Below, piece after piece: positions 6,461 to 22,938 of a stretch of DNA of 22,939 bases. The stretch lies in the NCBI GenBank assembly GCA_964012805.1, contig CAXGUD010000055.1, forward strand, positions 1 to 22,939. Reading direction: 5' to 3'. The DNA comes from an uncultured Bacteriovoracaceae bacterium. GTDB taxonomy: Bacteria > Bdellovibrionota > Bacteriovoracia > Bacteriovoracales > Bacteriovoracaceae. The translations under genes were made by a program, and so were the position numbers. The notes below the pieces were generated by a model. The model worked only from the letters and a program-made list of their open reading frames with translations. It had not been told where the DNA came from and did not search any database. The stretch's first letter is position 1; each line of letters starts with the position of its first letter.

Positions 6461-6518
6461 TCCTTGTGATATTGCTATACTTAACTGGCCCTTGTAGTTA
6501 ACACACTATGCACATAAT

Positions 6519-6550
6519 GACCCCCCTTTTTTCAAAAAAAGGGTCTTTTT
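6519..6550. terminator. Probable terminator hairpin downstream of the coiled-coil gene
   Basis: GACCCCCCTTTTTT-C-AAAAAAAGGGTC followed by TTTTT. It pairs more fully on the minus strand via G-U. Confidence 0.5.
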
Positions 6551-6596
6551 AGGGTAAATGAAAGGTAGAATTAAGGGTTTTCAAGGAAAAAAAGAA

Positions 6597-7157
6597 TTAG
6601 TCGACCCTTTCTTTAAGACTTCGAATCTCCTCTTGATGGCCTTCTTTTAGCTTTGAAATTTTATTTTCGTAATATTTTTCTAAATTTTCCTTGTCTTCCT
6701 CTAGGCGAAGCTCAAGGTCGTTCATTTTCTCCCTAGTCCTTTCAATGAAGTCACTCATCTCACGCTCTCTAAGTTGGCTTTTTCGGAGGTAATTGTCTCT
6801 TAAAAGATCCATTTCATCCTTAAAGGCAAGTTTGGCCCTCCTCTTTTCTTCTGTAAATTTCTCCCTCTGCTCTTCCATATCCTTATTCTTGGAATCTCTC
6901 GTCTTCATTAGCTCGTCTCGTGTTTTTTGAGTCACGCTTTCTATTTTTGTCTCATAATTTTTCACCAATTCTTCCATTTGCCTGGTACTTTCTCGGTTCC
7001 TAATTTTTAAGATATCTTCACGGCTCTTTTTCATATCATCAATTTGTTGACTAAAACCCTTTTTCATTACCCTTATCTGATTTTGATTTTTTTTCCGCTG
7101 ATCACTTAGTTGCTTAATATATTCCCTTCTTACAGTTTCACTTCTTGAAAGCTTCAT
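6597..7157 (-). CDS. Hypothetical charged coiled-coil protein
   Basis: 186 aa, very rich in E/K/R/M, no Pro or Cys. GAGG upstream. Confidence 0.8.
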   Translation of the reverse strand: MKLSRSETVRREYIKQLSDQRKKNQNQIRVMKKGFSQQIDDMKKSREDILKIRNRESTRQMEELVKNYETKIESVTQKTRDELMKTRDSKNKDMEEQREKFTEEKRRAKLAFKDEMDLLRDNYLRKSQLREREMSDFIERTREKMNDLELRLEEDKENLEKYYENKISKLKEGHQEEIRSLKERVD

Positions 7158-7280: not shown

Positions 7281-7991
7281 TTATAAGAAAGGCCACCTGG
7301 CCAAATAAGCACAAACTCTTAGAATAGGTGATGTTATGGCCTTAAAGAAAAAGCCAAAAATTGGATACCTTTGGCAAAATGAAACAACCACAGGAGAAAC
7401 CACATAGTAAAAATCAACAAATTTTTGTCCGGTTGGATTGGACTTTAAAACCATCCGAAAACGTCGAAGGTCTATCGTCACGGGATGGAAATCACTGAAG
7501 CAGTAACTGGAAACATAACAAGCTCCAGACTTTTCCCGAATCTCCATATAAACTTTTTTAAAGGCATCCATGTTGTTACAGCCCTTACTTTTGATATATT
7601 TTCTCAACATTTCAGAGTTCACAAAGTGATACTTAAAACCTACCGTAAATTTGGCAAATTGGTTCAAACAGCGGACCGATTCTTTATAAAGGTTCGGGTT
7701 TTTGTCATAAATTTTCGCCATATCCCAATAAACCTGACTAATCAGAAGTAATTCGGTCGTTTCTTTTTTGTGATCAAAGTGCCTGGGTGACAGGCTTTTT
7801 TCAGGAATTTCGTGAAACTGGGACAAAATGTTGAGGTATTCAATATAGCTCTCCAAAGCCTCTTTTAACTTACCCTTCTTTGAGAGGTCCATTCCCTTCC
7901 TAAGAGAGCCAAGACGCTTTTTGTAAAGCTCTATGATAGCTTTCCTTCTTCTTTTCTTTTGTCTTGCTTCCTCTTCTTCTCTAGTAACCAT
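7281..7991 (-). CDS. TPR-like helical protein with C-terminal CFI-box-CTERM domain
   Basis: The C-terminal GACYVSSYCF..LRRFR..L..NPTGQKFVDFYYVVSP matches the CFI-box-CTERM pattern. The N-terminal part has TPR-like helices (KGKLKEALESY, YWDMAKIYD). Confidence 0.75.
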   Translation of the reverse strand: MVTREEEEARQKKRRRKAIIELYKKRLGSLRKGMDLSKKGKLKEALESYIEYLNILSQFHEIPEKSLSPRHFDHKKETTELLLISQVYWDMAKIYDKNPNLYKESVRCLNQFAKFTVGFKYHFVNSEMLRKYIKSKGCNNMDAFKKVYMEIREKSGACYVSSYCFSDFHPVTIDLRRFRMVLKSNPTGQKFVDFYYVVSPVVVSFCQRYPIFGFFFKAITSPILRVCAYLARWPFL

Positions 7992-8163: not shown

Positions 8164-9273
8164 ATGGACAATAAAAAGTTGCCTATCGCAGTCACCATTA
8201 CGCTTGTCATTGGACTCGCTCTTGGTTGGACAATCGGAAAATCAGGTTCTCCTTCAAAAGGAGGGCTCGCCAATTTAAAAAGTCCGGAAAAAATCGGCTC
8301 TTGCTCGGCAGACGGTTCAAACTCCCTAGAAGAAAAAGTTCTTAAAATAGACGATAGGGTTTATACTTTTCAAGAACTTCCAGATAACCTCAAGCACACT
8401 CTTTTTGATCTTAAAAACGATGGCCACCAAAAATCGCTCCGTTACTACGAAGAGTTTGCCTTAAGAGTGGCCCTCGCAAAAGATCTTAGTAAAACAGGAC
8501 CTCTACCTCCAATGAAAGACCTTATGCCTGAGATGCAAGTAAGCGATCAGGAAATAAAAGACTTCTTTGAAAAAAACAAAAATAGAATGCCACCAAATTC
8601 AAAACTCGAGACAATGAAAGCAAACCTTTCAAGATACCTCAAAAATCAAAAGCTTTTCTCTTGGTTTGAAAAAGAATTAAAGGGCCTAAAAGAATCAGGG
8701 AGACTTAAAATCCTTGCAAAAGGTCCCTCATCTCCAAAAATTAGCATGGACTTAAAGGGGCTTCCCACTGTTGGTCCTAAAGACGCAACATTTACACTTA
8801 TTGAAGCTTCTGACTATTTGTGTCCACACTGCCAAAAAGTACACAAAGAGGTTAAAAACGTTCTTAAAAAATACAAAGACAAGTTAAAATTCGTTCAAGT
8901 TAACTACGCTCTTAGACCTAATCAAGATAGTGGAACTTACATAAGAGGCGCTCACTGCGCTCAAAAGCAAAGCGAAGGCCTTTTTTGGAAATACCACCAC
9001 CTAACATTTGAAAGGCTTGCTCTACAAGAATCTAAAGATGTAAAAGAAAGTGCTTTTAATACGGCCCTCAAATTAGCAAAAGAAGTTGGAGCCGATGAAA
9101 GTAAGTTTAAAACCTGCCTGACAAGTGAAGACTCTAAGGCTGCAATCCTTGCAAACAATGATCGTCTTTCAAAAGTCGGAGTTCACTCAACACCAACTTT
9201 TTTCCTTAATAATAAAAGAGTTGTTATAGGTCCTGAAGGTCTAGAAAAGGCCCTTGAAAAACTTATTCAATAA
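8164..9273 (+). CDS. DsbA-family thiol-disulfide oxidoreductase with N-terminal anchor and SurA-like helical region
   Basis: N-terminal hydrophobic segment, VSDQEIKDFFEKNK helical region, GPKDATFTLIEASDYLCPHC active site, GVHSTPTFFLN cis-Pro loop and a second Cys pair in the helical insert. Confidence 0.9.
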   Translation: MDNKKLPIAVTITLVIGLALGWTIGKSGSPSKGGLANLKSPEKIGSCSADGSNSLEEKVLKIDDRVYTFQELPDNLKHTLFDLKNDGHQKSLRYYEEFALRVALAKDLSKTGPLPPMKDLMPEMQVSDQEIKDFFEKNKNRMPPNSKLETMKANLSRYLKNQKLFSWFEKELKGLKESGRLKILAKGPSSPKISMDLKGLPTVGPKDATFTLIEASDYLCPHCQKVHKEVKNVLKKYKDKLKFVQVNYALRPNQDSGTYIRGAHCAQKQSEGLFWKYHHLTFERLALQESKDVKESAFNTALKLAKEVGADESKFKTCLTSEDSKAAILANNDRLSKVGVHSTPTFFLNNKRVVIGPEGLEKALEKLIQ

Positions 9274-9291: not shown

Positions 9292-9328
9292 TAAATAAGG
9301 CCCTCTATTTCTTAGAGGGCCTTATTTA
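9292..9328. terminator. Bidirectional terminator between convergent genes
   Basis: Perfect 16-bp inverted repeat TAAATAAGGCCCTCTA-tttct-TAGAGGGCCTTATTTA. It overlaps the stop codon of the giant gene. Confidence 0.85.
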
Positions 9329-12300
9329 TTTCCAATACCCCACTTCACTTTCATAAAATCAAAGAGGTCAGATTTTTGCTCATCTGTTAATAAGTTTTTA
9401 AAGATAATAACGTCCCCAATATGTCCTTTAAAAGACCTTGCCTTTGAGTTTGAGTAGCAAGTTACACATCTACCATTTTTCATTGACTTTAATTCTCCCC
9501 CTAAAAAGATGTGATGATTTGGTTCCTCGGTTGAAAATGATTTATCTTCAAGCTTTATCTTATTAGCTGGTACATCCTTAAGGATATTATTGGAGTAAAT
9601 TGAAATTGGTCTTAGGGAATTAGACTTATCAAACTCAATAAGAATAAAGGATGACTCACCTTTTTTAATAGCGCCTTTTTTAGTTATCGAATTGATAATA
9701 GAGCTTGAACCATTAGTTACTCTAAACCACAGCTGACCAGACTTAGGAGTTTTATGGCCTTCAAAGCCCAAAAGAAACCCTTTAGTTTCTGAAGAAGACT
9801 TGTGACTATTTCCTAAAAGAGCGCAAAAACGGTTTTGACAATCCGACTTCACAAAAAGAGCTATCGTATAATTTGTTGAGTTGTCATGAAGGAACTTGAA
9901 GTTCTCTTTAGAGCTTGAACTCCGTAGGCGCCTAAATTTAAGCTGGTCTCCACTATAAAGAGTATTTCTTCCATTGACTCCCGTTCCGTTAACCTTATAA
10001 ATAAGACCATCTTCATCTGCAATTTCAAAATGGTTTTCTTTTCCAGACCTATCGTTAAGAATAAGAACTTCACTATCTTCCCCAGTCACCTCAATATTTG
10101 AATCCAAAGATAAGGCCGGGTCGAGCCATAGGAAAAGGTCGGTCGGAGGGCCAGATGAAGATAATTCATCTGGAAAAGGTAACCTTGTGTAAGGCACACC
10201 AGAAGCCGAGCAGGTTGATAAATTCCCAGATTCACTCAAAGCTTTGGCAAAAAGGTTAAACTCACCTGGGGGCAAGTCTTCTTTGTAATCACTCCTTTCA
10301 ATTAAGACTTCATTTCCAATGCTCTCTGCTTCTGCCACCGCAAATTGGCATTCTTTATCTCTATAAAGCTTAACTTTTTGATTGGCCATAACTCCTTGAA
10401 CTCGAACTTGGGGTCTTTTAAATATATCAATTGAGGAAATATTATCTTCCAAAATAATTTTGGATGGTGCCGGCGGAGGAGTTAAATCAAGGTTGTAGGC
10501 AACCGATAAGTTAGAGCAAGCTGACTCATTCCCTGCAATATCTTTAACTTTAATATAATAGGTGTAGGCCCCCTCTTCTTTAAGCGCCTTATCTAAATTA
10601 GGCCTTACCTCAACTTGTCCTCCAATACTTCCCTGACTCTTTCCAACTTCTTTACTGGCCCCACAAGTCTCATCATCTTGGAAGAGGACCACTTTATCTC
10701 CCGCGGATAAACTTTTTACAATGATTCTTGGCCTTTTCTCATTAAAAGTTGGTTTAAGAGATGGATCTAAAGCAAAGTCAGATGGCATCTCTGGAGGTGT
10801 TTGATCAATAGAAAGGCTTGCAGTCGCTTTCTCTGACTCACCATCAGCATCTCTTATTGTATATTTAAAGGCCCCCGAACGATCCTCTCCTTTACCCATA
10901 ACCTCAAAGAAGCAAGTCCCTTCATTGTCACACTGACAGGCCTTTTCAAGAGTAAAGTAATCTTCTTCAATGTCAAAAATAGAACAGGATAAGGCCTTAT
11001 CTTTATTTTGATCTGTATATTTAACTTTAATGACACTTAAAACATTTGGTCTAATATGAGTGGGTTCAATTTCACCCAAGGCCTTAGGGGCCATTGGTAC
11101 TCCACCAGTTGATTCATTAAAAAGTGAGTTAATTTTTGAATCTGCTAAGGCCTTAGAATAAAACCTAAGATCGTCGAGGAGTCCTTTATAAGAAGACCCC
11201 TTAGTTCCCATCGCCGTCTCACCAAAAATTTGACCAAGCCCCCGCTCACCAGGGTGGTATTCAACAATATTGATAGAAGTCGTTTTCTCATCCTTTAATT
11301 TCCCATTAACAAATAGTTTTAACTTCTTCTCCTTACCATCAAAAGTAATCGCTACATGGTACCATTTATTAACCCCGTCACTTTCAAAAGACCACGAAAC
11401 TTTATCGTCTACTTTTGTAGAAGACTTGGAATAGTTATAAACGCCCGCAATGAATTGACCATTTTGGATGACGAGAGAAATTCCTTTTACATCCCCACCT
11501 TCATCATAAACCATTTGAAATGAATCTTTATTATGAATTTCTTTTGGTTTAACCCACATTGAAATCGTTCTCGCCTGAAATTCCTTGGTAAGAAAATTGT
11601 TACGGTCATTTTCTTTAAACTGAACAGAAGTTCCGTCAAAAGCCAGAACATGCCCCCGAACGTTATCTTTAAACCATTTGGTCGAATCATTTAACACGCC
11701 TTTACGCCCGGCTTTACCAGTGGAATCATTGACTGACGAGCCAGCTGATTCATCAAATTTATAATGGGCAAATAAAGAGTCATCCTTAAAGGCATATTGA
11801 TAAGTTTCTATAGTAGAAGCCGATGCATTGCCGGCTTTATCACACGCAATAATAGAAATAGTCTTTTTGCCAGGAGCTTTTATTGAAATTTTATTTCCAG
11901 TTCCTAGAACTATACCTTTACTACAATCAGCTGGTGGAGCTCCATTTAAAACGTATCTAAATTCTTTAAAGTTAGAATCTTTACCTCCCTTAATGGTAAC
12001 CTCGAAGTCTTCCGAAAATGTTTTTGACTCTGGCTCTAAAATAACTTTCTCAGGCTTCATTTTGTCATTTACCGTTACAGTAAAAAGTACATCGTCAAAT
12101 GCTCCAAGACTTGAATCCTGACCACGGACTCTAAATTCATATTTTCCAAAAGTTTTTAGTGGAGCATTCCATTCAAAAAGACCTTTGTTTTTATCAAAAC
12201 TAACTCCAGCCAATTCTTCACTTTTACAGGAATTAAATTCAGAAACCAGACCATCGATAACGCTATCAAAAAAGCAAGAGTAGACAACAGTTTCACCATC

Positions 12301-15300
12301 TCTATCTTTATCTTCTTTAGTATGTTTATCATTGACATCAATTTTGAGAGAAGTGCCAGAATCTATAGTAGCTGATTTAACTTTGGTAAGCTCAGGGGAA
12401 AGGTTAATATCATTCACCTCAATACTAAAAAAGATGTTATCACTATCCTTCCCATCAGTTCCCGTTATTTTAAAATACCAAGTGCCTGCCGAGTCTAGAG
12501 CTGGTTTCCATTTCATCAAACCAGTCAAGCTTCCAAAGTTTAGACCCGAAGCCTTAGAACAAGGATTGGCCGTAAACGCTGTCACAGCTTCTTCAGTCCT
12601 AGAAAATTGACAAGTATAATTAATCACTTCTCCATCTGCATCTTTATCGCTCCCATTTTCATCATTAATATCTAATAAGGCCATTTCCTCATTTTCATAG
12701 GCCGCAAGATCAGAAATTTCAGATAATTTGGGCGGCCTATTTTTATCTTCAACATTAATTTTAAAAATTTCAGAATCACTAAATCCTGAGGCAGTTCCTA
12801 TTATTTTAATTTCATAGGGGCCTGATTGATTAAAATTGGGAGACCAGTCTAAAACGCCTGTCATAGAGCTAAAACCGACACCAGAAAGTAAAGAACATTC
12901 AGTTAAATTTTGAACATTATTATCTGGCAATAAATCATAAAAGCATTCGTAGCTAATCATTTGCCCTATAGAGGTTTGATCTCCTCCACTTTTGTCGTTG
13001 GCATCTATTTGAGTCATAAGCTCATTTTCATTGACAAAGCTATCACTAATATCTTGAAGTTCTGGCGCTAAATTATAAGTAACATCCGCCATTTGTGAAG
13101 ATGATATGTTGCCAGCTTCATCCCGGCACCAACCATATAATTTATAATCACCAGCACCTCGAGTGAGTTCATAAGTATTAGGTTGAGATAAAAGCCAATT
13201 GACTGGAATTGTGGGATCATCTGTTATTTGCCATCCACTCACTTTTACACTATCCAAACAGTTAAAGGCCTTAATAGAAACTTTCTTATCTTTAGTACTT
13301 ATAGGTAGTTCAAATTGAACGACATTAGGTGGAGTGTTATCAATAACATAAGAAAGCGGACTTATAGTGCAAGCTGATTCTTCATCCTTTGAATTCATAC
13401 TTTTTGCGTAAAAGTTATAATATCCATCAGGAAGGTTCGTTAGCGAGACCTCAGCTGTCCCATCATTAGCAGTTGCTTCTCCTATTTTTTGAAAGCAACC
13501 CGGATCATTATAAAGGATAACTAAATCATCGAATCCAACACCACTTACTTTAACTTTTGGCGAGGTATTTTGAGAAGGAGAAGTTAAACCATTAGCAAGG
13601 GAAAGATCTGATGGAGTATTAGTTTCTTCCATTTCCCATTTTTTGTCCAAGTATTCCCTAATGACTTTTCTTTCATTGTCTGAAAGGACCCTATTATAAA
13701 TTATAAATTCGCCAATTTCTCCTTTCCAAGGATAGGTTATATCAGCATCAATATGCTTTCCTAAATAAATTCCTTCAAATTTAGAGTCACTTGATTGATG
13801 CGTGTATTGATTATTATTTACACCTGATTTTAGAGAAACTAATTCGTCTTGTTTAAATATTTTCATTGTTTTGGAGCTTTTACTAGAGGTAAAATTCCAT
13901 CTGTAAAAAAGGCCTTTCGATGCTTTTATACCACCAGTAACCCTTCCATTATTTATGAAGTTCCCAAAATCAAACATAGCTTTAGCATTACCTGAAGGAT
14001 CGGTTCCCCATGGGAAATGGATATTGAGCCTATTGTCAGGTCGAAGAGGATTGGCAGCTAAAATGGATGTTCTGGAATTTAGGCCATTTCGTGCGAATAT
14101 AAAAATATCCGCTTCTGTTGCCGTCTTAACGCCCATGATAGCTTTTTCCCCTACTAGTAAACTATCGTCGACACCATCAAATTTAACTACACTTTTATTA
14201 CCTATTTTTATAAGTTTTGGAAGTACGCTTCCTTTATGATCTAGAGGTGGATTGACTTTAGACGTAACCTCAATAGAAATAATCTTATCGTTCCATCCAC
14301 TACCTAAGGAATTACTATAACCGACGAATCTACTGTTATTATTGGTCTTCGTTTTACAAACGCCATCATCTCTACAAAACTTAATAGTCACATCCTTAGG
14401 GATTTGATAGGAGCTTATTTTATTTTTCCACTCATCTTGTGGGGTTTCTTCACCAACACAAAACTTCCATTTGGTTCCTTTATAATTACTATCAAGGTAC
14501 ATGGAAGCACATCTTGAACTTTCTGGATTATTTTTCCTAAATAAGGGATTTAAAAAATCGAGTGGATCTCTAGCATCGTTTTGATTTGAAGACCGGTCTT
14601 TCCATCTAGCAATTTTACTTTTGTCTTTTAATTCTATTGTTTCTTCTGCTGCAGCGTCCATCCACCATTGAACATCACCAAGAGAAAACAGAGATTTATT
14701 AAGTTGAACTTTCCTTTTCAAGTTGTTGATAACTTCTAAGTCGACTTTAACAACTTCATTAGGGTTTTCAGACTCTGGGATTTTACATCTAATCGCTTCA
14801 GTTGATTCCTCTAAAATTGAACAAACTTTTCCCGAAACCTTAACGATATTACCAGAAGAAGAAAAGTTTTTCCCTTGAATTGTTAAAACGTCTCCGCCTT
14901 TTCCATGGAAAGATTTAGGTTTAAAGGACGAAATTGTAGGACTATCATTTGTCATAACAATGTTCCATTTTTTAGCGAGGGAATTCCTAACCCCCATTCT
15001 TTCAGAAAAGGTTAGGGCCTTATCAAAAACTATGACTTCTCTAATTTTTCCTTTCCACCGACCGCTTCCATCATACCTCATCCCTAAATTCAAGCTTAAA
15101 CCAATATTAAGACCACCAGTTCCGTAGCTATCTGAGCTTGCATATTGAGAGCTTAGAGTATCGTATGAGTTAAATTCAGTTTCGTCACTTTGGGCACAGG
15201 AATTAGTGGCCTCAATTTCATTTCCAACGCTACACTTTTCACTGCAATTATTACCAATGGGGTTAAGACATTTTTGACCTATGAGGTCTTGAACCGACTG

Positions 15301-18300
15301 TACACATTTTTGGTTGTAGGCGGTACAAATTTGATTATAAACTGAGCACCTTTGATTATATTCAACGCATCTTTGATTGTAGGAAGTGCATCTTTGGTTA
15401 TAAGAAACACACTTTCTATTATATTCAACACATTTTTGAACATATTGATTACAATCACGTCTATATTCAAGACACCGGGTTCCCCACCAATTTTTCCTTA
15501 CACAGTAACTATTCCCATAGCGGGCACAGCGATTTGTGTTCCGACTTCTCCTACAAGTTGTATTTTCATATTTTTTACAAGTTGTATTTTCATAATTTCT
15601 ACAAGTTGTATTTTGATATTTTTTACAAGTAGTGTTTTCGTACGTTTTACAGGTTCCATTCTTGTAAGATTTACATGTTGTATCCTGGTACTTAGTACAA
15701 CGATCTTTAAAAACCATTGATTTTTTTGGGGTGAAAAGAAGATTATCGGTTCCATGAAGCTTAAAGCTCTGTTCACTTTTACCATTGCACGTTTGTAAAA
15801 TAACTTTTCCACTCTCAAAACTCCAGCATTTTCCTAATTCAGAAACGCTTTTCACATTATAAAATCCATCTCCTTGGTATTCTATTTTCCAACCTTGCTT
15901 CTCCCCCTCGTGACATTCTCTAAATTTTATAGTTCCATCACTACCATCCAAACACCTCTTTTTATCAGCACAGCATTTATTGGTAATAATTTTATACTTT
16001 CCTTGTTGAATCATTCTATTATTTTGAACTAGGGAAAATCCTTGTTTATCACTCATCACTTCAATAATATGCGGATCTTTAATAGGAAGTGATTCAATTT
16101 TGGTGGATGGCATTTGAGATCCAAAAAGCATCCATGATTCATTATCTGTTCTTTCCAATCGGTAACCATTAGTTGAAGCATTTCTTTGAAAAGCAATAGG
16201 GTTAGTCCAACTTCCTGAATCTGAAGCACTCTCTAATACAATAAAAAGACTGTGATCTTTTTGACCATCTTTTAAAATATTCTGCCCACCTTCATGGGTT
16301 AATGAGCCTCCACCGAACTCCATGAAATTACCTGATAGATCTCCTCTAAAAATAACAGAGCCCGCCAGTGGCAACATGTGATGATTATTTCCACTTTTAT
16401 CCCTCCATTCAGTGACTCTTTGATTATCAACGGAAATAGAACCAATATCAGAGGCGTCTAACCATAACTTGGATTGACCAATATAAGTAAAGCCATTTGG
16501 AAATTCAATTGGCTCACCTTCTGACTTTTTAACAACGACATTAAAGGTCGATACATTTTTAGTCCCTTTTGGGTTTTCAGGTACTTTACAAATAATTTCT
16601 TTTTGGTCCTCAGAAATAATAGGACAATTCACTCCTCCAATAGTCACTCTATTTCCAAAATCTGAGAAATTGGAGCCAGAAATTGTTATCTCATTGCCTC
16701 CCTTACTAAGCCCCATATTTGGTTGAATTGAAGTTAAAGTAGGATAGTCTTTAAAAGACCACTTTCTTTTGAGTATCTTTTGAATAAGATTTGTTTCTTT
16801 CTCTGTTAGAGATCTGTTGTAGATTAAAATTTCACCCATATCACCTTTGTATTTATTATTATATTGATCCCTACCCTTTCCAATATAAAGCTTATCACTT
16901 CCTCCATCCTGAGGAATTTTTCCAACAGTTCTTTTATCGAATCCCATAGGATTATTTAAACCGTCTACATTGAGTGAAAGTTCATCATTACCATGCTTAA
17001 GAGTTGCAAGGTAAAAAGAGTTAAGTGGAACACTAACCCTAGGAGCGGTCTTACAATTATCACACATCGTCCCATCAATACCTGCCCTAAAACCGAGGTC
17101 ATCAAAATAAAGACCAAACCAAGCCTCTTTATCTCCGACTATTCCAGAAGTATTATAACCTCTATCATATTCAGGCTTAGGACCATTTCCTGAAGGACGT
17201 CCAATAAAAAATAAAGTTGATTGACCATCTTTGACATTCGAGACATCGTTCCAGGTCGTTGGTTCTAATTTAAAGAAATCACCTTCATCATTATTTTTAA
17301 GACCATTAAACGAGATAATGGAACGACCATTAAAGCCTTGAGGTCTAAATGTAGGTTTATTAGTAAAAATTGAAGCTTTTCTTTGGGAAGAGCTTTTATC
17401 AATCCACGAATTAACGATTATTTTGGAGTTACTTTTTTCAAGATTTATTGACCTACCATCATCACCATCCATCCATAACTTGGGATCACCAATATAGGCC
17501 AGTCCATTCTTAACAACCTGCGTTGTTTTTGAAGAACTCACTATAATAACGTTTTCTTCTGCAATATTATCGATACCTTTTTTATTTTTAGGTATTGTAC
17601 AAACAATTTGTCCTTCGTCTTCGGTTATAATAGGGCAATTAAGACCTCCAATAGTTACCTGATTCCCGGACTTGCTAAAGTTTCCGTATAAATATAGAGG
17701 AGTTCCTCCTTGACTATTAACTAAACGAGGCCAAACTAAAGTCTTAATAGACTCTAATTTGTGTAGCCATTTCTTGGCCAAATAACTATCTATTGAGGCT
17801 CTTTCTCTTGCGGTAAGCGCCTTTTTAAAAACAAGAACTTCTTTAACGTCTATATTACCTTTGAATTCTTGGGGATCGTGACCAATGGATCCAATATCAA
17901 AAAAGCTATGCGAAGGATTTCCCTTGGATTCAGTAAAACCATTACCGCTTTGCCAACCATTAATATGAACAGTCGATTCATTTTCGACGTCTGCTCTCAT
18001 AGTAGTTATAAAAGATTTAAACTCTGAATTTTTTAAAGTTAAAATATCGACAAGACCATCTCTTCCGTTAGAAATGCCGCTTCTATTTCCATTTTCAGTA
18101 AAGTTGAGAAGCGCAAACCGGTCCCACCCCATATTATCTGTTCCCCAAATAGCATTTTTCTTAAAATTAGAATCATGAGGCCTAAAGACAATAATAACTG
18201 TTGCATTAGGAGAAACTTCCCGACTAATATTGACATTTTCTGATCTTAAAAAAGAATCTTTAAATTTAACAAATACTTCATCTTTTTTGCCGTCATCATT

Positions 18301-21300
18301 TAGTTTTGGTGATTGACCCAAAATAAACTTAGCATGATTATTATTACCACTTTGATCTTTCCAACACTTAACATTTTTGTTGGTGTCATTTTTTGCCAAA
18401 TTGATACAGTTAGGATCACTAAAAAGAGATTCTTTTTGTCCTGAATCAAGCCATAATAAAGGGGAACCTGTATAAGTAAAATGAAGGGGATAATTTAAAT
18501 TTATTCCAGAGGCCTTAACCAAAATGTCTTCCCTTGAAACCATATGAAGACCCAAAGGTGACATTGGAATGGTACAAATAATTTCAGATCTAGATTCACT
18601 TGTAATTGGGCAAGCCTTATTACCTATGAAAACTTCGTTACCATCTTTAGAAAACCCCCTACCTTTTATTGTAAGATCGGTTCCACCTTCTCCTTTACTA
18701 CTCCGATGGGAAAATGAAAAAATTTCAGGTTTAATGGAAAGGGTGTAATTAAGACCAAGATTGGTACAGGCCGATAAATTTTCGCCACTGTCTTTTAATT
18801 GCCCATAAAAATTTTTCTTACCATTATCTTCGCCATCTTCTTTAAAGAGAATATTTTTAATTTGAAATTTGCCTTCTTTGATAATCTGAGAACCTATAGG
18901 ATCTCCTTGACACATATTATTAAGGAAAACATTAACTGTTGTTCCTTCCTCACCTAATATTCCTTTTCCTTCAATCAAAGGATTAATTTCATTTGAAATT
19001 TCCCCATTTTGTGGCCTTATAAATACAAAGCCATCAGGATTTTGGGGTGGGACACCATCCAATACTTTAATATTAAAGTATTGAGTATCAATGAGACCTC
19101 CATCACTTGCTGAAATTTTAAATTCGTAATTACCTAGTTGACCTATTTTAGGAGTCCAATTAATAGTACCTTCCAAAGGATCAAAAATTATTCCTTGGAG
19201 GCTTTTACAAGCTTTTAGATTGGTTACAATATTGTCTATATTTTGATCGTAAAAGCATGTATAAATTATTTGATCATTATCTTGATCAAATGTTGAATTA
19301 GTATTCTTATCTTTAATATTTATTTCTTTAATCGCTAAACTTTCTTTGATTTTTTGGGATTGGCTTGCCAAATCAAAGATTTCAGGAGCTTTATTTATAT
19401 TTTCAGCCTTAATAGTAAAAATTTTAAAATCTATAGCTTCTAACTCTTTTCCGCCTCTCTCTATTTTTCCACCATCACTAGCAGTAATTTTAAATTCATA
19501 GTCGCCTTCTTGACCGAACTGAAGATCCCAAGAAAATGTACCATCCATAGAATCAAATTTAAGCGCCTTTAAATTTTTGCATTCATTTACTTCAAGTACA
19601 TTACCGTCTTTTAATTTATCGAAATAACATCTATATATTATTTTTTCTCCATCGATATCTATGTCTTCACTGGTATTTAAATCAATAGTATCAAAAGATA
19701 TATTGGTTTTATTAACATAACCCAAGTGATTTTCTAATTCTCCAATCTTTGGAGACCTATTAGAGTTGATAACGGTAATAGTAAATTCTTTTGAATCACT
19801 TTCATTGACGAAAGTATCTTTCTTGGCCCCTCCAACATTTCCTGCTGTAAACTGATCTTTGGCCTTGATTAGAAGTTTAATATCAATTTTATTATTTTTA
19901 ATACTTGCAAGATCAAAACCTGGTTTCCAAGAAAGTAATCCATTATCACTATTAAAATTAATGCCCAAAGCGGAACACAATTTGGTACTATCACCGTCTT
20001 TATAGAAACATTCATAGGTTACTTTTTCTCCATCTATATCTAAATCATTTCCAAGATCGGTATTAATGTCCAAATTTAAAGTATCATTTTCTTTAACGGT
20101 CTGAGATTTAATTTCTGCTAAAACAGGAGCCCTATTATTATTTCCAACATTAATTTGAAAAGAAATAGAATTGGTTAAAGTTTCAAACTTTTTATCTCCT
20201 AACTCTTTCACACCTAAATTATTAGAGTTGGAGTCGGAAGCGGAAATAATAAAATTATAGCTTCCTGCCTGATCAAAAGCTGGGGTCCACTCTATTTCGC
20301 CTGTTTTGTTATTAAATGATATTAAGAGGTTTTCACAAGGGTTATTATTTACTTCACAGCTGTAAATAAGAGATTCTTTATCTATATCCTGATCCCCAAT
20401 TTCTTCCCCCTCAATATTAATAGCCTTCATGGGACTGCCTTCTACGATTGATTGATCTGTAATTTTAGATAATTTAGGAGCTCTATTCACATTTCTTATT
20501 TTTATATCAAAAATAGTATCATCACGAGAAGTTATCTTTTTACCATTATCAAGGAGAATGTTCCCCCCATCACTACCAACAATTTTAAATTCATATTCTC
20601 CCGCTTGAAAAAAGCTTGGAGTCCAATTTAATTCCCCTTTAGTGGAATCAAATTTAGCTCCTCCTAATTTTAAGCAGTTATTACTATCACTTTCTTCAAC
20701 TTTTGAATCGACCGAAGAATCATAAAAACAATTATATTGAATTAAGTCATTGTCGATATCTTTATCTTGATTAGTATTTTCATCACTGGCGTTAATCGTA
20801 TCTAACGTTTTTCCTTCCATGTTAACAATGGATATAATTTTTTTAAGCTTAGGTGGCCTATTCACATTTTGAACTTCAATAGTAAATATTTTAAAATCAT
20901 TTTTTGGGTTAGGGTCTAAATCTGTACCTAAGATTTTAAATTCATAAGTTCCCGATTGTTCGAAATTAGGAATCCAATTCATAATACCTTTATTTTTATC
21001 AAAACTAATCCCTTTAAGATTTATGCATTCGTTTTTGTCATCAACCTTAGAGTCTTTAACTTGATCGTAAAAGCAGGCGTATTTAATATTTTGGATGTCT
21101 ATATCTTGATCTGAGAGCTTGATTTTGTTTGGAATTAAAATTTTTGAAATATCTGAAACATCAATAACTTTTATATTTTTATTTTCATCAATAGTCTGGT
21201 TATCTATTTCTCCAAGCTTTGGTGGTCTATTAACATTTTTAATCGTAACGTTAAATTCTTTAGTATCGGCCAATGGATTTAAAGGGTCATTATCTTCGGC

Positions 21301-22938
21301 AGATATTTTAAAATTATAAACTCCGGAAAGGAAGTAATCCGTTATCCAGTTCAATTCGCCCGTATTGTTGTCAAAAGTAAGACCTCTAAAAGAATCTTTA
21401 CATTCAACAAATTTATTATCTTTATCTTTAACGGGTGGTCCTCTAACTAAGCAAATAAATTTTAATCTTTGGAGGTCTATATCTTCGGCACCACTTTTAA
21501 TGGCATTATCAGGTCTGATTATTTTAATAATATTGGTTAAAACAGACTGATCTTTAGCTATTATATCCTCTATTTTTTCATTTTCATTTATTATCTTGTT
21601 GTCTATCTTCTCTAATGATGGGGCCCTATTGTTATTTTTAACTTTTACAAGAAAAGTCTTAGAGTCCATTGATTCAACTGTCGTTCCTTCTGAGTTTTTA
21701 ACTTGTCCACCATCACTTGCAGTTATGGTAAATTCATAATCCCCTGATTGAAAAAAGTCAGGCTTCCAATTTAATTTTCCAGTACTGGTATTAAAGGATA
21801 CTCCCCTTAATTTTAAACAATCTTTGGATCCGTCTATTTTTTTATTAATATTTTGATCTATAAAACAAGAATATTTCAAAGCTTCCTGATCTATATCTTT
21901 ATCACCAAGTGTTATTTTATCATTAGCGTCTACCTCCTTTATTTTTTGATCTTCTTTTATTTCCTGGTCTGAAATGTCAACTAAACTAGGTGGACGGTTT
22001 ACATTTTCAACATTAATAGTGAATACTTTTGAATTTTTCAGTGGTCTTGGGTCATCATCAACGGCCGTAATTTTAAATTCATATTGACCTGATTGAGTGA
22101 AGTCTGGCGTCCAATTTATTTTACCTGTTAATTTGTCAAAATTAATGCCTTTTAATGCTGAGCAATCATTAATACTTTTATCTTCAATTACAGATCCATC
22201 AATAACCTGATCAAAAAAACAGGTATAATTTAAAGCCTGTAAATCAATATCTTCATCTACTTTTTTAGGACCCATAATACCAGGAGTTCTGAGCCTAGCT
22301 TGGGCTATTGGGACAATAAGTTTTGAAATATCGTTTGGATCTATTTCTTTTAAGTCAGTCATCTCTTTTATACTTTGATTACCGATTTCAGATAATGATG
22401 GAGCTCTGTTTACATTTTTAACTTCTAGTTTGAACTCCTGGGAGCTCTCCTTAGGGTCTTCACTATCATTATCATTAGCTCTTATTTTCACTGTATATTT
22501 CCCTGATTGAAAATAATCAGTTTTCCACTTTAGAATGCCTTTATTACTATCGAAATTAATACCTCTTATTGGTTCCTTACACGGCTTAAAAGATTTTTCA
22601 TTTTCTTCTTTTAAGTCACAAAAATAGGTCAATTTCTGAAGGTCAATATCTTCATCCTCGCCCTTTTTAGGGTTATCTGGACGTACAATTTTTAAATCAA
22701 TTAAAAGTTTCGAGTTATCATTGCCATTTACATCTATAATAACTTCATTTTCTTTTATTATTTGATCTTCAATTTTTGAAAGTGAAGGGGATCTATTTGT
22801 ATTTTTGACTTTTATCATAAATGTCTTGGAATCTTTTGAATCTATCATTAAGCCATCAGTACTTTGAACTTTTCCTCCATCATTAGCTGTAATGGTGAAT
22901 TCATAATCTCCCGCTTGGAAAAAATCTGGTTTCCAGTT
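9322..22938 (-). CDS. Giant multidomain extracellular adhesin-like protein (>4538 aa, 5'-truncated)
   Basis: One uninterrupted frame. Upstream of the track's Met (22848) it continues NWKPDFFQAGDYEFTITANDGGKVQSTDGL to the window edge. It carries cadherin-like, Ig-like, IPT/TIG, LamG-like, ricin-like and crystallin-like motifs. Confidence 0.95.
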   Translation of the reverse strand, partial: NWKPDFFQAGDYEFTITANDGGKVQSTDGLMIDSKDSKTFMIKVKNTNRSPSLSKIEDQIIKENEVIIDVNGNDNSKLLIDLKIVRPDNPKKGEDEDIDLQKLTYFCDLKEENEKSFKPCKEPIRGINFDSNKGILKWKTDYFQSGKYTVKIRANDNDSEDPKESSQEFKLEVKNVNRAPSLSEIGNQSIKEMTDLKEIDPNDISKLIVPIAQARLRTPGIMGPKKVDEDIDLQALNYTCFFDQVIDGSVIEDKSINDCSALKGINFDKLTGKINWTPDFTQSGQYEFKITAVDDDPRPLKNSKVFTINVENVNRPPSLVDISDQEIKEDQKIKEVDANDKITLGDKDIDQEALKYSCFIDQNINKKIDGSKDCLKLRGVSFNTSTGKLNWKPDFFQSGDYEFTITASDGGQVKNSEGTTVESMDSKTFLVKVKNNNRAPSLEKIDNKIINENEKIEDIIAKDQSVLTNIIKIIRPDNAIKSGAEDIDLQRLKFICLVRGPPVKDKDNKFVECKDSFRGLTFDNNTGELNWITDYFLSGVYNFKISAEDNDPLNPLADTKEFNVTIKNVNRPPKLGEIDNQTIDENKNIKVIDVSDISKILIPNKIKLSDQDIDIQNIKYACFYDQVKDSKVDDKNECINLKGISFDKNKGIMNWIPNFEQSGTYEFKILGTDLDPNPKNDFKIFTIEVQNVNRPPKLKKIISIVNMEGKTLDTINASDENTNQDKDIDNDLIQYNCFYDSSVDSKVEESDSNNCLKLGGAKFDSTKGELNWTPSFFQAGEYEFKIVGSDGGNILLDNGKKITSRDDTIFDIKIRNVNRAPKLSKITDQSIVEGSPMKAINIEGEEIGDQDIDKESLIYSCEVNNNPCENLLISFNNKTGEIEWTPAFDQAGSYNFIISASDSNSNNLGVKELGDKKFETLTNSISFQINVGNNNRAPVLAEIKSQTVKENDTLNLDINTDLGNDLDIDGEKVTYECFYKDGDSTKLCSALGINFNSDNGLLSWKPGFDLASIKNNKIDIKLLIKAKDQFTAGNVGGAKKDTFVNESDSKEFTITVINSNRSPKIGELENHLGYVNKTNISFDTIDLNTSEDIDIDGEKIIYRCYFDKLKDGNVLEVNECKNLKALKFDSMDGTFSWDLQFGQEGDYEFKITASDGGKIERGGKELEAIDFKIFTIKAENINKAPEIFDLASQSQKIKESLAIKEINIKDKNTNSTFDQDNDQIIYTCFYDQNIDNIVTNLKACKSLQGIIFDPLEGTINWTPKIGQLGNYEFKISASDGGLIDTQYFNIKVLDGVPPQNPDGFVFIRPQNGEISNEINPLIEGKGILGEEGTTVNVFLNNMCQGDPIGSQIIKEGKFQIKNILFKEDGEDNGKKNFYGQLKDSGENLSACTNLGLNYTLSIKPEIFSFSHRSSKGEGGTDLTIKGRGFSKDGNEVFIGNKACPITSESRSEIICTIPMSPLGLHMVSREDILVKASGINLNYPLHFTYTGSPLLWLDSGQKESLFSDPNCINLAKNDTNKNVKCWKDQSGNNNHAKFILGQSPKLNDDGKKDEVFVKFKDSFLRSENVNISREVSPNATVIIVFRPHDSNFKKNAIWGTDNMGWDRFALLNFTENGNRSGISNGRDGLVDILTLKNSEFKSFITTMRADVENESTVHINGWQSGNGFTESKGNPSHSFFDIGSIGHDPQEFKGNIDVKEVLVFKKALTARERASIDSYLAKKWLHKLESIKTLVWPRLVNSQGGTPLYLYGNFSKSGNQVTIGGLNCPIITEDEGQIVCTIPKNKKGIDNIAEENVIIVSSSKTTQVVKNGLAYIGDPKLWMDGDDGRSINLEKSNSKIIVNSWIDKSSSQRKASIFTNKPTFRPQGFNGRSIISFNGLKNNDEGDFFKLEPTTWNDVSNVKDGQSTLFFIGRPSGNGPKPEYDRGYNTSGIVGDKEAWFGLYFDDLGFRAGIDGTMCDNCKTAPRVSVPLNSFYLATLKHGNDELSLNVDGLNNPMGFDKRTVGKIPQDGGSDKLYIGKGRDQYNNKYKGDMGEILIYNRSLTEKETNLIQKILKRKWSFKDYPTLTSIQPNMGLSKGGNEITISGSNFSDFGNRVTIGGVNCPIISEDQKEIICKVPENPKGTKNVSTFNVVVKKSEGEPIEFPNGFTYIGQSKLWLDASDIGSISVDNQRVTEWRDKSGNNHHMLPLAGSVIFRGDLSGNFMEFGGGSLTHEGGQNILKDGQKDHSLFIVLESASDSGSWTNPIAFQRNASTNGYRLERTDNESWMLFGSQMPSTKIESLPIKDPHIIEVMSDKQGFSLVQNNRMIQQGKYKIITNKCCADKKRCLDGSDGTIKFRECHEGEKQGWKIEYQGDGFYNVKSVSELGKCWSFESGKVILQTCNGKSEQSFKLHGTDNLLFTPKKSMVFKDRCTKYQDTTCKSYKNGTCKTYENTTCKKYQNTTCRNYENTTCKKYENTTCRRSRNTNRCARYGNSYCVRKNWWGTRCLEYRRDCNQYVQKCVEYNRKCVSYNQRCTSYNQRCVEYNQRCSVYNQICTAYNQKCVQSVQDLIGQKCLNPIGNNCSEKCSVGNEIEATNSCAQSDETEFNSYDTLSSQYASSDSYGTGGLNIGLSLNLGMRYDGSGRWKGKIREVIVFDKALTFSERMGVRNSLAKKWNIVMTNDSPTISSFKPKSFHGKGGDVLTIQGKNFSSSGNIVKVSGKVCSILEESTEAIRCKIPESENPNEVVKVDLEVINNLKRKVQLNKSLFSLGDVQWWMDAAAEETIELKDKSKIARWKDRSSNQNDARDPLDFLNPLFRKNNPESSRCASMYLDSNYKGTKWKFCVGEETPQDEWKNKISSYQIPKDVTIKFCRDDGVCKTKTNNNSRFVGYSNSLGSGWNDKIISIEVTSKVNPPLDHKGSVLPKLIKIGNKSVVKFDGVDDSLLVGEKAIMGVKTATEADIFIFARNGLNSRTSILAANPLRPDNRLNIHFPWGTDPSGNAKAMFDFGNFINNGRVTGGIKASKGLFYRWNFTSSKSSKTMKIFKQDELVSLKSGVNNNQYTHQSSDSKFEGIYLGKHIDADITYPWKGEIGEFIIYNRVLSDNERKVIREYLDKKWEMEETNTPSDLSLANGLTSPSQNTSPKVKVSGVGFDDLVILYNDPGCFQKIGEATANDGTAEVSLTNLPDGYYNFYAKSMNSKDEESACTISPLSYVIDNTPPNVVQFELPISTKDKKVSIKAFNCLDSVKVSGWQITDDPTIPVNWLLSQPNTYELTRGAGDYKLYGWCRDEAGNISSSQMADVTYNLAPELQDISDSFVNENELMTQIDANDKSGGDQTSIGQMISYECFYDLLPDNNVQNLTECSLLSGVGFSSMTGVLDWSPNFNQSGPYEIKIIGTASGFSDSEIFKINVEDKNRPPKLSEISDLAAYENEEMALLDINDENGSDKDADGEVINYTCQFSRTEEAVTAFTANPCSKASGLNFGSLTGLMKWKPALDSAGTWYFKITGTDGKDSDNIFFSIEVNDINLSPELTKVKSATIDSGTSLKIDVNDKHTKEDKDRDGETVVYSCFFDSVIDGLVSEFNSCKSEELAGVSFDKNKGLFEWNAPLKTFGKYEFRVRGQDSSLGAFDDVLFTVTVNDKMKPEKVILEPESKTFSEDFEVTIKGGKDSNFKEFRYVLNGAPPADCSKGIVLGTGNKISIKAPGKKTISIIACDKAGNASASTIETYQYAFKDDSLFAHYKFDESAGSSVNDSTGKAGRKGVLNDSTKWFKDNVRGHVLAFDGTSVQFKENDRNNFLTKEFQARTISMWVKPKEIHNKDSFQMVYDEGGDVKGISLVIQNGQFIAGVYNYSKSSTKVDDKVSWSFESDGVNKWYHVAITFDGKEKKLKLFVNGKLKDEKTTSINIVEYHPGERGLGQIFGETAMGTKGSSYKGLLDDLRFYSKALADSKINSLFNESTGGVPMAPKALGEIEPTHIRPNVLSVIKVKYTDQNKDKALSCSIFDIEEDYFTLEKACQCDNEGTCFFEVMGKGEDRSGAFKYTIRDADGESEKATASLSIDQTPPEMPSDFALDPSLKPTFNEKRPRIIVKSLSAGDKVVLFQDDETCGASKEVGKSQGSIGGQVEVRPNLDKALKEEGAYTYYIKVKDIAGNESACSNLSVAYNLDLTPPPAPSKIILEDNISSIDIFKRPQVRVQGVMANQKVKLYRDKECQFAVAEAESIGNEVLIERSDYKEDLPPGEFNLFAKALSESGNLSTCSASGVPYTRLPFPDELSSSGPPTDLFLWLDPALSLDSNIEVTGEDSEVLILNDRSGKENHFEIADEDGLIYKVNGTGVNGRNTLYSGDQLKFRRLRSSSSKENFKFLHDNSTNYTIALFVKSDCQNRFCALLGNSHKSSSETKGFLLGFEGHKTPKSGQLWFRVTNGSSSIINSITKKGAIKKGESSFILIEFDKSNSLRPISIYSNNILKDVPANKIKLEDKSFSTEEPNHHIFLGGELKSMKNGRCVTCYSNSKARSFKGHIGDVIIFKNLLTDEQKSDLFDFMKVKWGIGNK
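9325..10140 (-). other. C-terminal LamG/concanavalin A-like domain
   Basis: LFLWLDP..LNDRSGKENHF..FKGHIGDVIIFKNLLTDEQKSDLFDFMKVKW. Confidence 0.75.
10180..10810 (-). repeat. Two Ig-like (Big-type) domains; related copies at ~13325-13620 and ~18735-19059
   Basis: Shared pattern DxTPP..P..VxL(F/Y)xDxxC..G.Y..Y....D.xGNxSAC. Confidence 0.65.
11116..11775 (-). other. Classical LamG (Laminin_G_3-like) domain
   Basis: AHYKFDE..TISMWVKP..KWYHVAITFDG..KLFVNGKL..YKGLLDDLRFYSKAL. Confidence 0.85.
12068..13074 (-). repeat. Three cadherin/He_PIG-like repeats, followed by a chitobiase-C/Fn3-associated-like domain (~11790-12067)
   Basis: NLAPEL, NRPPKL and NLSPEL starts with YxC..C..GxxFxxxxGxxxW cores. 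Then FRYVLNGAPP..ISIIACDKAGNAS. Confidence 0.7.
13636..18729 (-). repeat. Four tandem IPT/TIG + LamG-like units
   Basis: Each unit has GG..(L/I)xIxGxxF..GN.V.(I/V)G...C.I..E....I.C.(I/V)P, then (L/W)W(L/M)D..W.D.S ending in E(V/I)xx(F/Y)..L...E......L.KKW. LamG-like spans are ~17767-18462, 16759-17484, 14965-16470 and 13636-14670. Confidence 0.8.
15304..15699 (-). repeat. Cys-rich tandem repeats: 24-nt (8-aa) array then 21-nt (7-aa) array
   Basis: Six 24-nt units at 15553-15696 (plus-strand ACAAGTTGTATTTTCATATTTTTT-like, peptide CKKYENTT). 21-nt units below ~15474 (peptide CVEYNQR). Confidence 0.95.

Follow-up and report, generated by a model that had tools for sequence, protein, structure and literature searches.

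Closest Described Systems

Cystine-ladder β-hairpins are known from the theta-defensins and protegrins, peptides with two to three rungs; a theta-defensin is a short cyclic peptide with three disulfides. The subject of this analysis is a cysteine ladder encoded in a 22,939-nucleotide stretch of DNA from an uncultured Bacteriovoracaceae bacterium (assembly GCA_964012805.1, contig CAXGUD010000055.1; the whole stretch is hereafter called the window). It is likely lodged in a ricin-type β-trefoil, which in turn interrupts the third LamG-like unit of a giant immunoglobulin (Ig)-repeat protein. As in the theta-defensins and protegrins, the cross-strand disulfides are predicted to follow ladder order, the ladder is cationic (net charge +19) and the tip is aromatic. 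Unlike those peptides, the ladders found here have 9–16 rungs, are built from repeats, vary in length and sit inside a giant protein. Being an internal loop of 140 residues in an open reading frame (ORF) of more than 4,500 amino acids (aa), and not cyclic, the window ladder does not belong to the theta-defensin type.

The stalk of the ultralong third heavy-chain complementarity-determining region (CDR H3) of bovine antibodies is not known to be disulfide-laddered. As far as the accessible parts of the sources go (PMC5994613, PMC8602281), this short "stalk and knob" is a functional analogue of the ladder, a long hairpin that leaves a host domain and ends in a tip used for binding or in a knob rich in Cys (here in protein P0007 and in the orthologue from genome G001). 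Predatory bacteria also have giant surface proteins with Ig repeats, which are, in the available text, likewise very large, modular and probably adhesive (10.1101/2023.11.21.568195), and the mosaic adhesive fibres of Bdellovibrio, trimers by name, are the same kind of predator-lineage modular adhesive, according to the accessible part of that paper (PMC10769870). The window protein differs from both in that its diversity arises through inserts within inserts. The words "cysteine", "laminin" and "ricin" occur nowhere in the main text, as available, of 10.1101/2023.11.21.568195, the supplements of which might list such proteins. No paper describing such a ladder or such nesting in prokaryotic surface proteins was found in the literature searched, which held few subscription papers. 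Each host domain is already known, and the stalk module is probably undescribed.

Architecture of the Nested Unit

The giant ORF occupies positions 9322–22938 of the minus strand (4538 aa) and its 5′ end is open, running off the contig; all features of this ORF are given below on the same strand. Pfam families found in it include He_PIG, cadherin-like Ig repeats, TIG and Laminin_G_3, and it contains six LamG-like units. The preferred reading, which we consider rather probable, is that LamG-like unit 3 carries the trefoil and the trefoil carries a nine-rung stalk, zipped by disulfides, which would hold out an aromatic tip towards a target surface. A sequence-only reading had proposed the nesting from short motifs, all of which are in frame inside the ORF: KLWLDASD at 16470, FSLVQNNRMIQ ending at 16006, RCLDG at 15957, KCWSF at 15831, KCLNP at 15273, LNLGMRYDG at 15093 and LAKKW ending at 14965. 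Its count of three other LamG-like units was too low, the ORF having five others.

Unit 3 consists of an N-terminal half (16003–16470, 156 aa) and a C-terminal half (14965–15159, 65 aa), separated by an insert of 281 aa with 28 Cys (15160–16002). A LamG profile was made from 39 other units, unit 3 copies being excluded. The N-terminal half matches positions 2–128 of 228 of this profile and the C-terminal part positions 160–228 (176–228 for the segment 14965–15159); with the insert excised in silico, the joined halves give a single match over positions 2–228 of 228 with 88 bits, in agreement with the proposed split. At the Pfam Laminin_G_3 cut-off of 27.6, the C-terminal half remains below threshold with 18.4 bits (E value 0.0025) and the N-terminal half has no match, while sister units 2 and 6 pass.

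The natural sequence of 502 aa was modelled with AlphaFold2 from 26 alignment rows. The mean predicted local distance difference test (pLDDT) value was 49.8, and the model is confident only at both ends, with values of 80–95 across most of the first 80 residues of the N-terminal half and 83–89 in the last 30 residues; residues 95–129 (the middle of the N-terminal half) and 405–458 lie below 50. The model aligns with the Pan3 tailspike (9vyh) with a Z of 17.2 and a root-mean-square deviation (rmsd) of 2.8 over 187 residues (range 1–502), and with domain 4 of AbnA (5hon) with a Z of 15.8 and an rmsd of 2.5 over 169 residues. As modelled, the two halves are shown to form one ConA/LamG sandwich around the insert, which bears out the claim of a single split domain. 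Foldseek returned weak ConA-like rows only for this model. The botulinum and sialidase rows in the structure lists reflect the common ConA-like fold and have no bearing on toxicity.

The fold is therefore that of the known ConA-like/LamG sandwich (Pan3 tailspike, AbnA domain 4, PF13385; Z 15–17), but with the 281-aa insert, and sister LamG-like units carry different inserts at different loops. Unit 4 bears a β/γ-crystallin-like module (14266–14514; Crystall_3 E value 0.0025, below the cut-off), present in the window protein and the G001 orthologue and absent from the orthologue of genome G002. A unit upstream in the G002 protein (locus L008, 16030–17640, minus strand) is LamG-like and split by an L-type-lectin-like ConA domain, i.e., a ConA-like domain inside a ConA-like domain.

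The first two subdomains of the trefoil, α (15877–16002) and β (15754–15876), match PF00652 and trefoil folds. They are followed by the first strand of subdomain γ (15712–15753; strand E89–92, pLDDT about 77–79), which leads into the ladder. The ricin-type subdomains of the earlier reading are thus recovered as α, β and the first γ strand. The rest of γ, likely strands 2–4, lies beyond the ladder at 15160–15291 and is interrupted by an extra C-x3-C loop. The PF00652 match over 15712–16002 scores 32.2 bits against a cut-off of 29 (profile positions 13–94 of 126), and the whole insert falls below the RicinB_lectin_2 cut-off.

A second AlphaFold2 model was made for the insert from 25 rows, in which the ricin rows were trimmed before γ; mixed LamG and ricin alignments were misaligned. 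Altogether, 524 row subsets were tried to bring γ into register, and none was used because the model would then have been told the answer. Residues 1–97 of the insert model have pLDDT values of about 77–96, and their nine strands align with many trefoils (Z 9–11, rmsd about 2), for example with residues 2–107 of ThreeFoil (Z 10.9, rmsd 1.9, 92 aligned). In the model, then, nine of the twelve trefoil strands are shown to precede the ladder loop.

By sequence, the closing strands are clear in G001, where joining γ raises the score to 43.4 bits, compared with 34.6 for α and β alone and at most 35.5 in 20 shuffled controls; the CDtoxinA trefoil is matched with an E value of 0.003, and among the scored Cys windows the γ window ranks directly behind those of α and β. 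In the window protein, the first and last Cys and the final aromatic residue of γ align with γ of 21 reference trefoils. From orthology, which is clear in G001, and from the closed LamG domain around the insert, we infer that γ closes a 12-strand trefoil in the window protein as well. Compared with R-type trefoils (ricin B/CBM13, PF00652), the fold and the pattern of two Cys and a Q-x-W/F ending per subdomain are the same; the differences are the 140-residue Cys ladder after strand nine, the absence of the aromatic residue and the Asn of the galactose site and the insertion of the domain itself into another.

The Cysteine Ladder

Arm 1 of the ladder (15502–15711) has nine Cys in repeats of the form C-x-x-Y-x-N-[GT]-T, eight residues long with one of nine. 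Arm 2 (15292–15474) also has nine Cys, in seven-residue repeats of C-x-x-Y-N-Q-x. Between them lies a tip of nine residues (15475–15501) with two Trp and a Gly, which resembles the ladder tips of the Nanoarchaeota phylum. From the Cys at 15699 to that at 15306, the spacings are 8, 8, 8, 8, 8, 8, 9 and 8, then 10, then eight times 7. The Cys on the two arms are mirror-matched, as expected of the paired-arm hairpin that had been proposed. The ladder follows the first γ strand and precedes KCLNP, which corrects the sequence-only reading, where it had been placed inside KCLNP..NSCAQ.

In G001, the ladder has 7 + 7 Cys by the author's pairing and a polar tip. The G002 ladder has 16 + 16 Cys, and a crystallin-like domain stands between rungs 8 and 9 on arm 1, forming a fourth layer. 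Its identity is 43–46% to copies in other genes of its own genome and 37–40% to the unit 4 copy; since it is nearer the former, it probably represents a separate acquisition. Three further four-Cys crystallin-like copies occur in other genes of the window genome (contig C23, about 23081–23378; C28, about 45781–46077; C15, about 86531–86824), one of them in an ORF of 2924 aa. To judge from sequence, the crystallin-like module is mobile within the window genome. The last loop of arm 1 in G001 (locus L009, about 6500–6650, plus strand) contains a 49-aa module with six Trp, 12 Lys/Arg and four Cys, the alternating Trp-Arg run of which recalls cationic membrane-active peptides.

Ladders in Other Proteins

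A HMMER search of cluster representatives gave 138 matches, most of which were plain ricin domains or repeats that were of low complexity or out of frame; P0001–3 and P0006 (fragments from close relatives), P0007, P0038, P0078 and P0138 were kept. The ladder search in 400 genomes of the phylum gave two weak matches in short frames. On viral contigs, a general DNA pattern of four C..Y repeats found tandem-repeat noise only and stricter patterns found nothing; with the stricter patterns, real ladders were present at 3 of 31 loci from genomes and 2 of 13 from metagenomes. The Atlas gave no usable match for the ladder, and for P0038 only weak Ig-like leads (template modelling score below 0.36 by query).

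The phylum to which a Nanoarchaeota record belongs is represented by 401 genomes, and 12 of these have a membrane-anchored family, one of the 12 being left out of the reading. The family shares the repeat and often has a near-identical tip. Its members (among them L183 5626–6528 and L210 1562–2401, both on the minus strand, P0147–P0151 and L263–L273) are mostly from the Nanoarchaeota phylum and belong to no Pfam family; one record carries the label Paceibacterota, as a label only. Rung counts are 3 + 3 in four proteins, 5 + 5 in two and 7 + 7 in one, with mirror spacing such as 5,7,7,7/7,7,7,5. Ten loci inspected by eye include 2 + 2, 3 + 3 and ladder-less forms, two of the ten being uninformative. 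The layout is likely to comprise N- and C-terminal segments as a two-stranded stalk, an Ig-like domain, a ladder of 0–7 rungs and an aromatic tip.

Other ladders are those of P0078 (6 + 6), P0138 (9 + 9) and the pilin-like protein P0007 (465 aa, with a weak prepilin motif). The C-terminal ladder of P0007 has 14 + 14 Cys by the author's pairing and a Cys-rich knob (12 Cys) at its tip; its 7-mer arm comes first and its 8-mer arm second, so the two repeats can apparently pair in either order. Arm Cys numbers thus match 9:9 in the window protein and are shown, at the level of sequence, to change together in relatives. Equal arms in all seven length classes arose by shuffling in 0.0004 of trials, a figure that overstates the case, since related proteins do not count as independent and the choice of extra Cys to disregard was a matter of judgement. 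Most related ladders end in an aromatic or hydrophobic tip, and ladder-less relatives retain the tip as well, which fits a reading of the tip as the working end and of the ladder as a spacer.

Geometry of the Stalk and Alternative Explanations

The arms of the preferred reading would form a twisted two-stranded β-ribbon with one bulge per rung, about 16–18 nm long if a rung of 2.0–2.3 nm is assumed. Among 152 Cys intervals, 92 are of seven residues, 32 of eight and 19 of five. On an α-helix, intervals of five and eight residues would be 140 and 80 degrees off, turning the Cys away, and therefore speak against a helix. Pro or Gly occurs in 13 of 94 heptads, Leu makes up 0.6%, and Val, Ile or Thr stand beside the Cys. 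Whole modules are inserted at the N-G position of arm 1, namely the crystallin-like domain in G002 and the 49-aa four-Cys module in G001. On these sequence features, the bulged β-ribbon appears clearly favoured over a helix-based rod.

Several observations weigh against this stalk or the closed trefoil beneath it. Equal arms were reached in G001 by setting aside four Cys, a matter of judgement, as was the setting aside of one extra Cys on arm 1 of P0138; raw counts of the archaeal family show one Cys more on arm 2, which was read as part of a host-domain disulfide, and in the P0078 cluster three members have Arg in place of one ladder Cys; P0144–P0146 lack one Cys. Aromatic residues are absent from the G001 tip. 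Subdomains α and β pass PF00652; with γ joined on, the 32.2 bits of the spliced window protein fall short of the 34-bit mean of 20 controls in which γ was shuffled. In G002, γ is likewise no better than shuffled controls, and among the scored Cys windows it ranks 25th of 79 in the window protein and 46th of 92 in G002. AlphaFold2 left γ unplaced in the window insert, and neither model built the hairpin: arm 1 is disordered and arm 2 is a helix (H184–245) with pLDDT values of 82–86 in the insert model and about 42 in the 502-aa model. The ladder region has only two to three rows in both alignments. No fold match covers the ladder, which says nothing about its fold because it was not confidently modelled.

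The modelled helix speaks for a different rod, in which arm 2 would be an α-helix with Cys at heptad position a and Tyr at position d, and arm 1 would wind back along it in short turns with the same mirror pairing, one disulfide per heptad and a length of about 8 nm. The predominance of seven-residue spacing and a weak match of the G002 arm to coiled-coil families point the same way. We regard this alternative as unlikely, because five-residue intervals fall in the middle of arm 2 of G001, Pro and Gly occur inside heptads in which Leu is nearly absent, the archaeal family arm passes directly into strands of the host domain (by eye), and the modelled helix has no partner.

A second alternative makes the trefoil a working lectin, so that glycan binding and a membrane-inserting spike would be combined in one unit, as the sequence-only reading had suggested. 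The fold is of ricin type, and most related tips are aromatic or hydrophobic. According to the accessible part of PMC8705660, the galactose site of ricin 1-α consists of Asp22, Gln35, Trp37 and Asn46, and changes of Trp37 to Ser in plant lectins shift sugar binding and do not abolish it; specificity can move to other sugars. The Asp of this site is kept in α of all three orthologues. Against this, the stacking aromatic residue and the Asn, placed by Cys anchors, are kept in none of the nine subdomains of the three orthologues, with Lys or Arg at these places in α; the γ site is occupied by the stalk and the extra Cys loop, and the G001 tip is polar. The case for sugar binding by the trefoil is consequently weak and this alternative improbable; with the aromatic residue and the Asn lost, the trefoil is instead read as a pedestal, a part of the earlier reading that finds support.

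A string of small modules, with the trefoil not closed downstream (partial or domain-swapped) or with Cys pairing locally or between molecules, would suit the unplaced γ and its score within the range of the controls, but is very improbable, since a nine-strand trefoil lacking its final three would be an open barrel, the arm numbers change together, and the insert ends must return because the two LamG halves form one closed domain around them.

Proposed Mechanism

Under the preferred reading, the segment after the 140-residue loop would supply trefoil strands 10–12, and the two Cys-matched arms are predicted to zip antiparallel through nine disulfides into the stalk. The trefoil, its canonical galactose site lost, would serve as the pedestal. 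The bulge of arm 1, at the N-G/N-T position, may be a docking point for further modules. Since inserts leave and re-enter at turns between neighbouring strands, modules could be added while the host fold stays whole. The protein would be a secreted or surface adhesin, the stalk of which keeps the hydrophobic tip off the Ig chain, and the cationic stalk and Trp-Trp tip may contact a surface that is anionic or hydrophobic, for example the envelope of a prey cell or a particle.

A broader proposal is made tentatively, the doubts slightly outweighing the support. The C-x-x-Y ladder with its 7/8-residue repeats may be a transferable disulfide-zipped stalk, which bacteria and archaea would graft into turns of trefoil, Ig-like and pilin domains, lengthen on both arms and decorate at the bulges and the tip. 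The result would be a branched, antibody-like antenna for recognising prey or hosts, with up to four layers per chain.

Genome Context

Among 60 relatives, the complete nested unit was found in two genomes that belong to the same genus (G001 and G002, the orthologues compared above). Contig C5 of the window genome ends in an ORF of 3013 aa with the identical Ig-repeat type (9039–1, minus strand); it has a signal-like start by eye, a long charged coiled-coil-like stretch and then about 19 Ig repeats. This ORF probably encodes the N-terminal portion of the giant protein: these repeats are confined to C5 and the window contig (C55), which suggests a single gene encoding over 7,500 aa, and the two ends share no exact overlap. 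An open frame of 12,914 aa from a genome of the same family (G415:C77; loci L027, L031 and L032) has several LamG-like units of the unit 3 type.

The nested architecture is real and not an assembly artefact. A second assembly, possibly from the same source, is identical over 1506 bases with 0 differences. Contigs from three other marine runs span the LamG/trefoil/ladder junctions with no indels or joints (X6, 15208–15797 and 15884–16536; X10, 14700–15346; X8, overlapping pieces). Public runs containing the window DNA are mostly labelled marine. One RNA run covers 243 bases of the region, too short a stretch to judge expression. A word-based protein search with the insert gave no match among 207 candidate giant proteins, and a PDB sequence search with it gave none at an E value of 10.

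A DsbA/thioredoxin-4-like protein with a hydrophobic N-terminal stretch is encoded at 8164–9273 on the plus strand, its 3′ end facing that of the giant gene. The three genomes of the genus all have this convergent pair, and the DsbA-like gene in it is a paralogue additional to the family-wide copy. In two other genera (G019 and G009), the paralogue is present and no giant gene is adjacent to it; the link is limited to the genus. Two conserved genes on the minus strand, at 6597–7157 and 7281–7991, match no Pfam family at the cut-off and encode a charged helical protein of 186 aa and a protein of 236 aa, the latter with a C-terminal motif that we take to be CFI-box-CTERM.

Biological Meaning

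With inserts three or four layers deep, a surface protein can be diversified while its domains stay intact. Such inserts also pose a folding problem, as 280–480 inserted residues with many disulfides have to be in place before the host domain can close. The ladder resembles a natural ruler, the reach of which changes by whole rungs, and may serve as a scaffold that displays domains at set distances. It occurs both in bacteria of predator lineages and in archaea with small genomes, which often live on hosts, and is thus a candidate for how such cells touch their prey or hosts.

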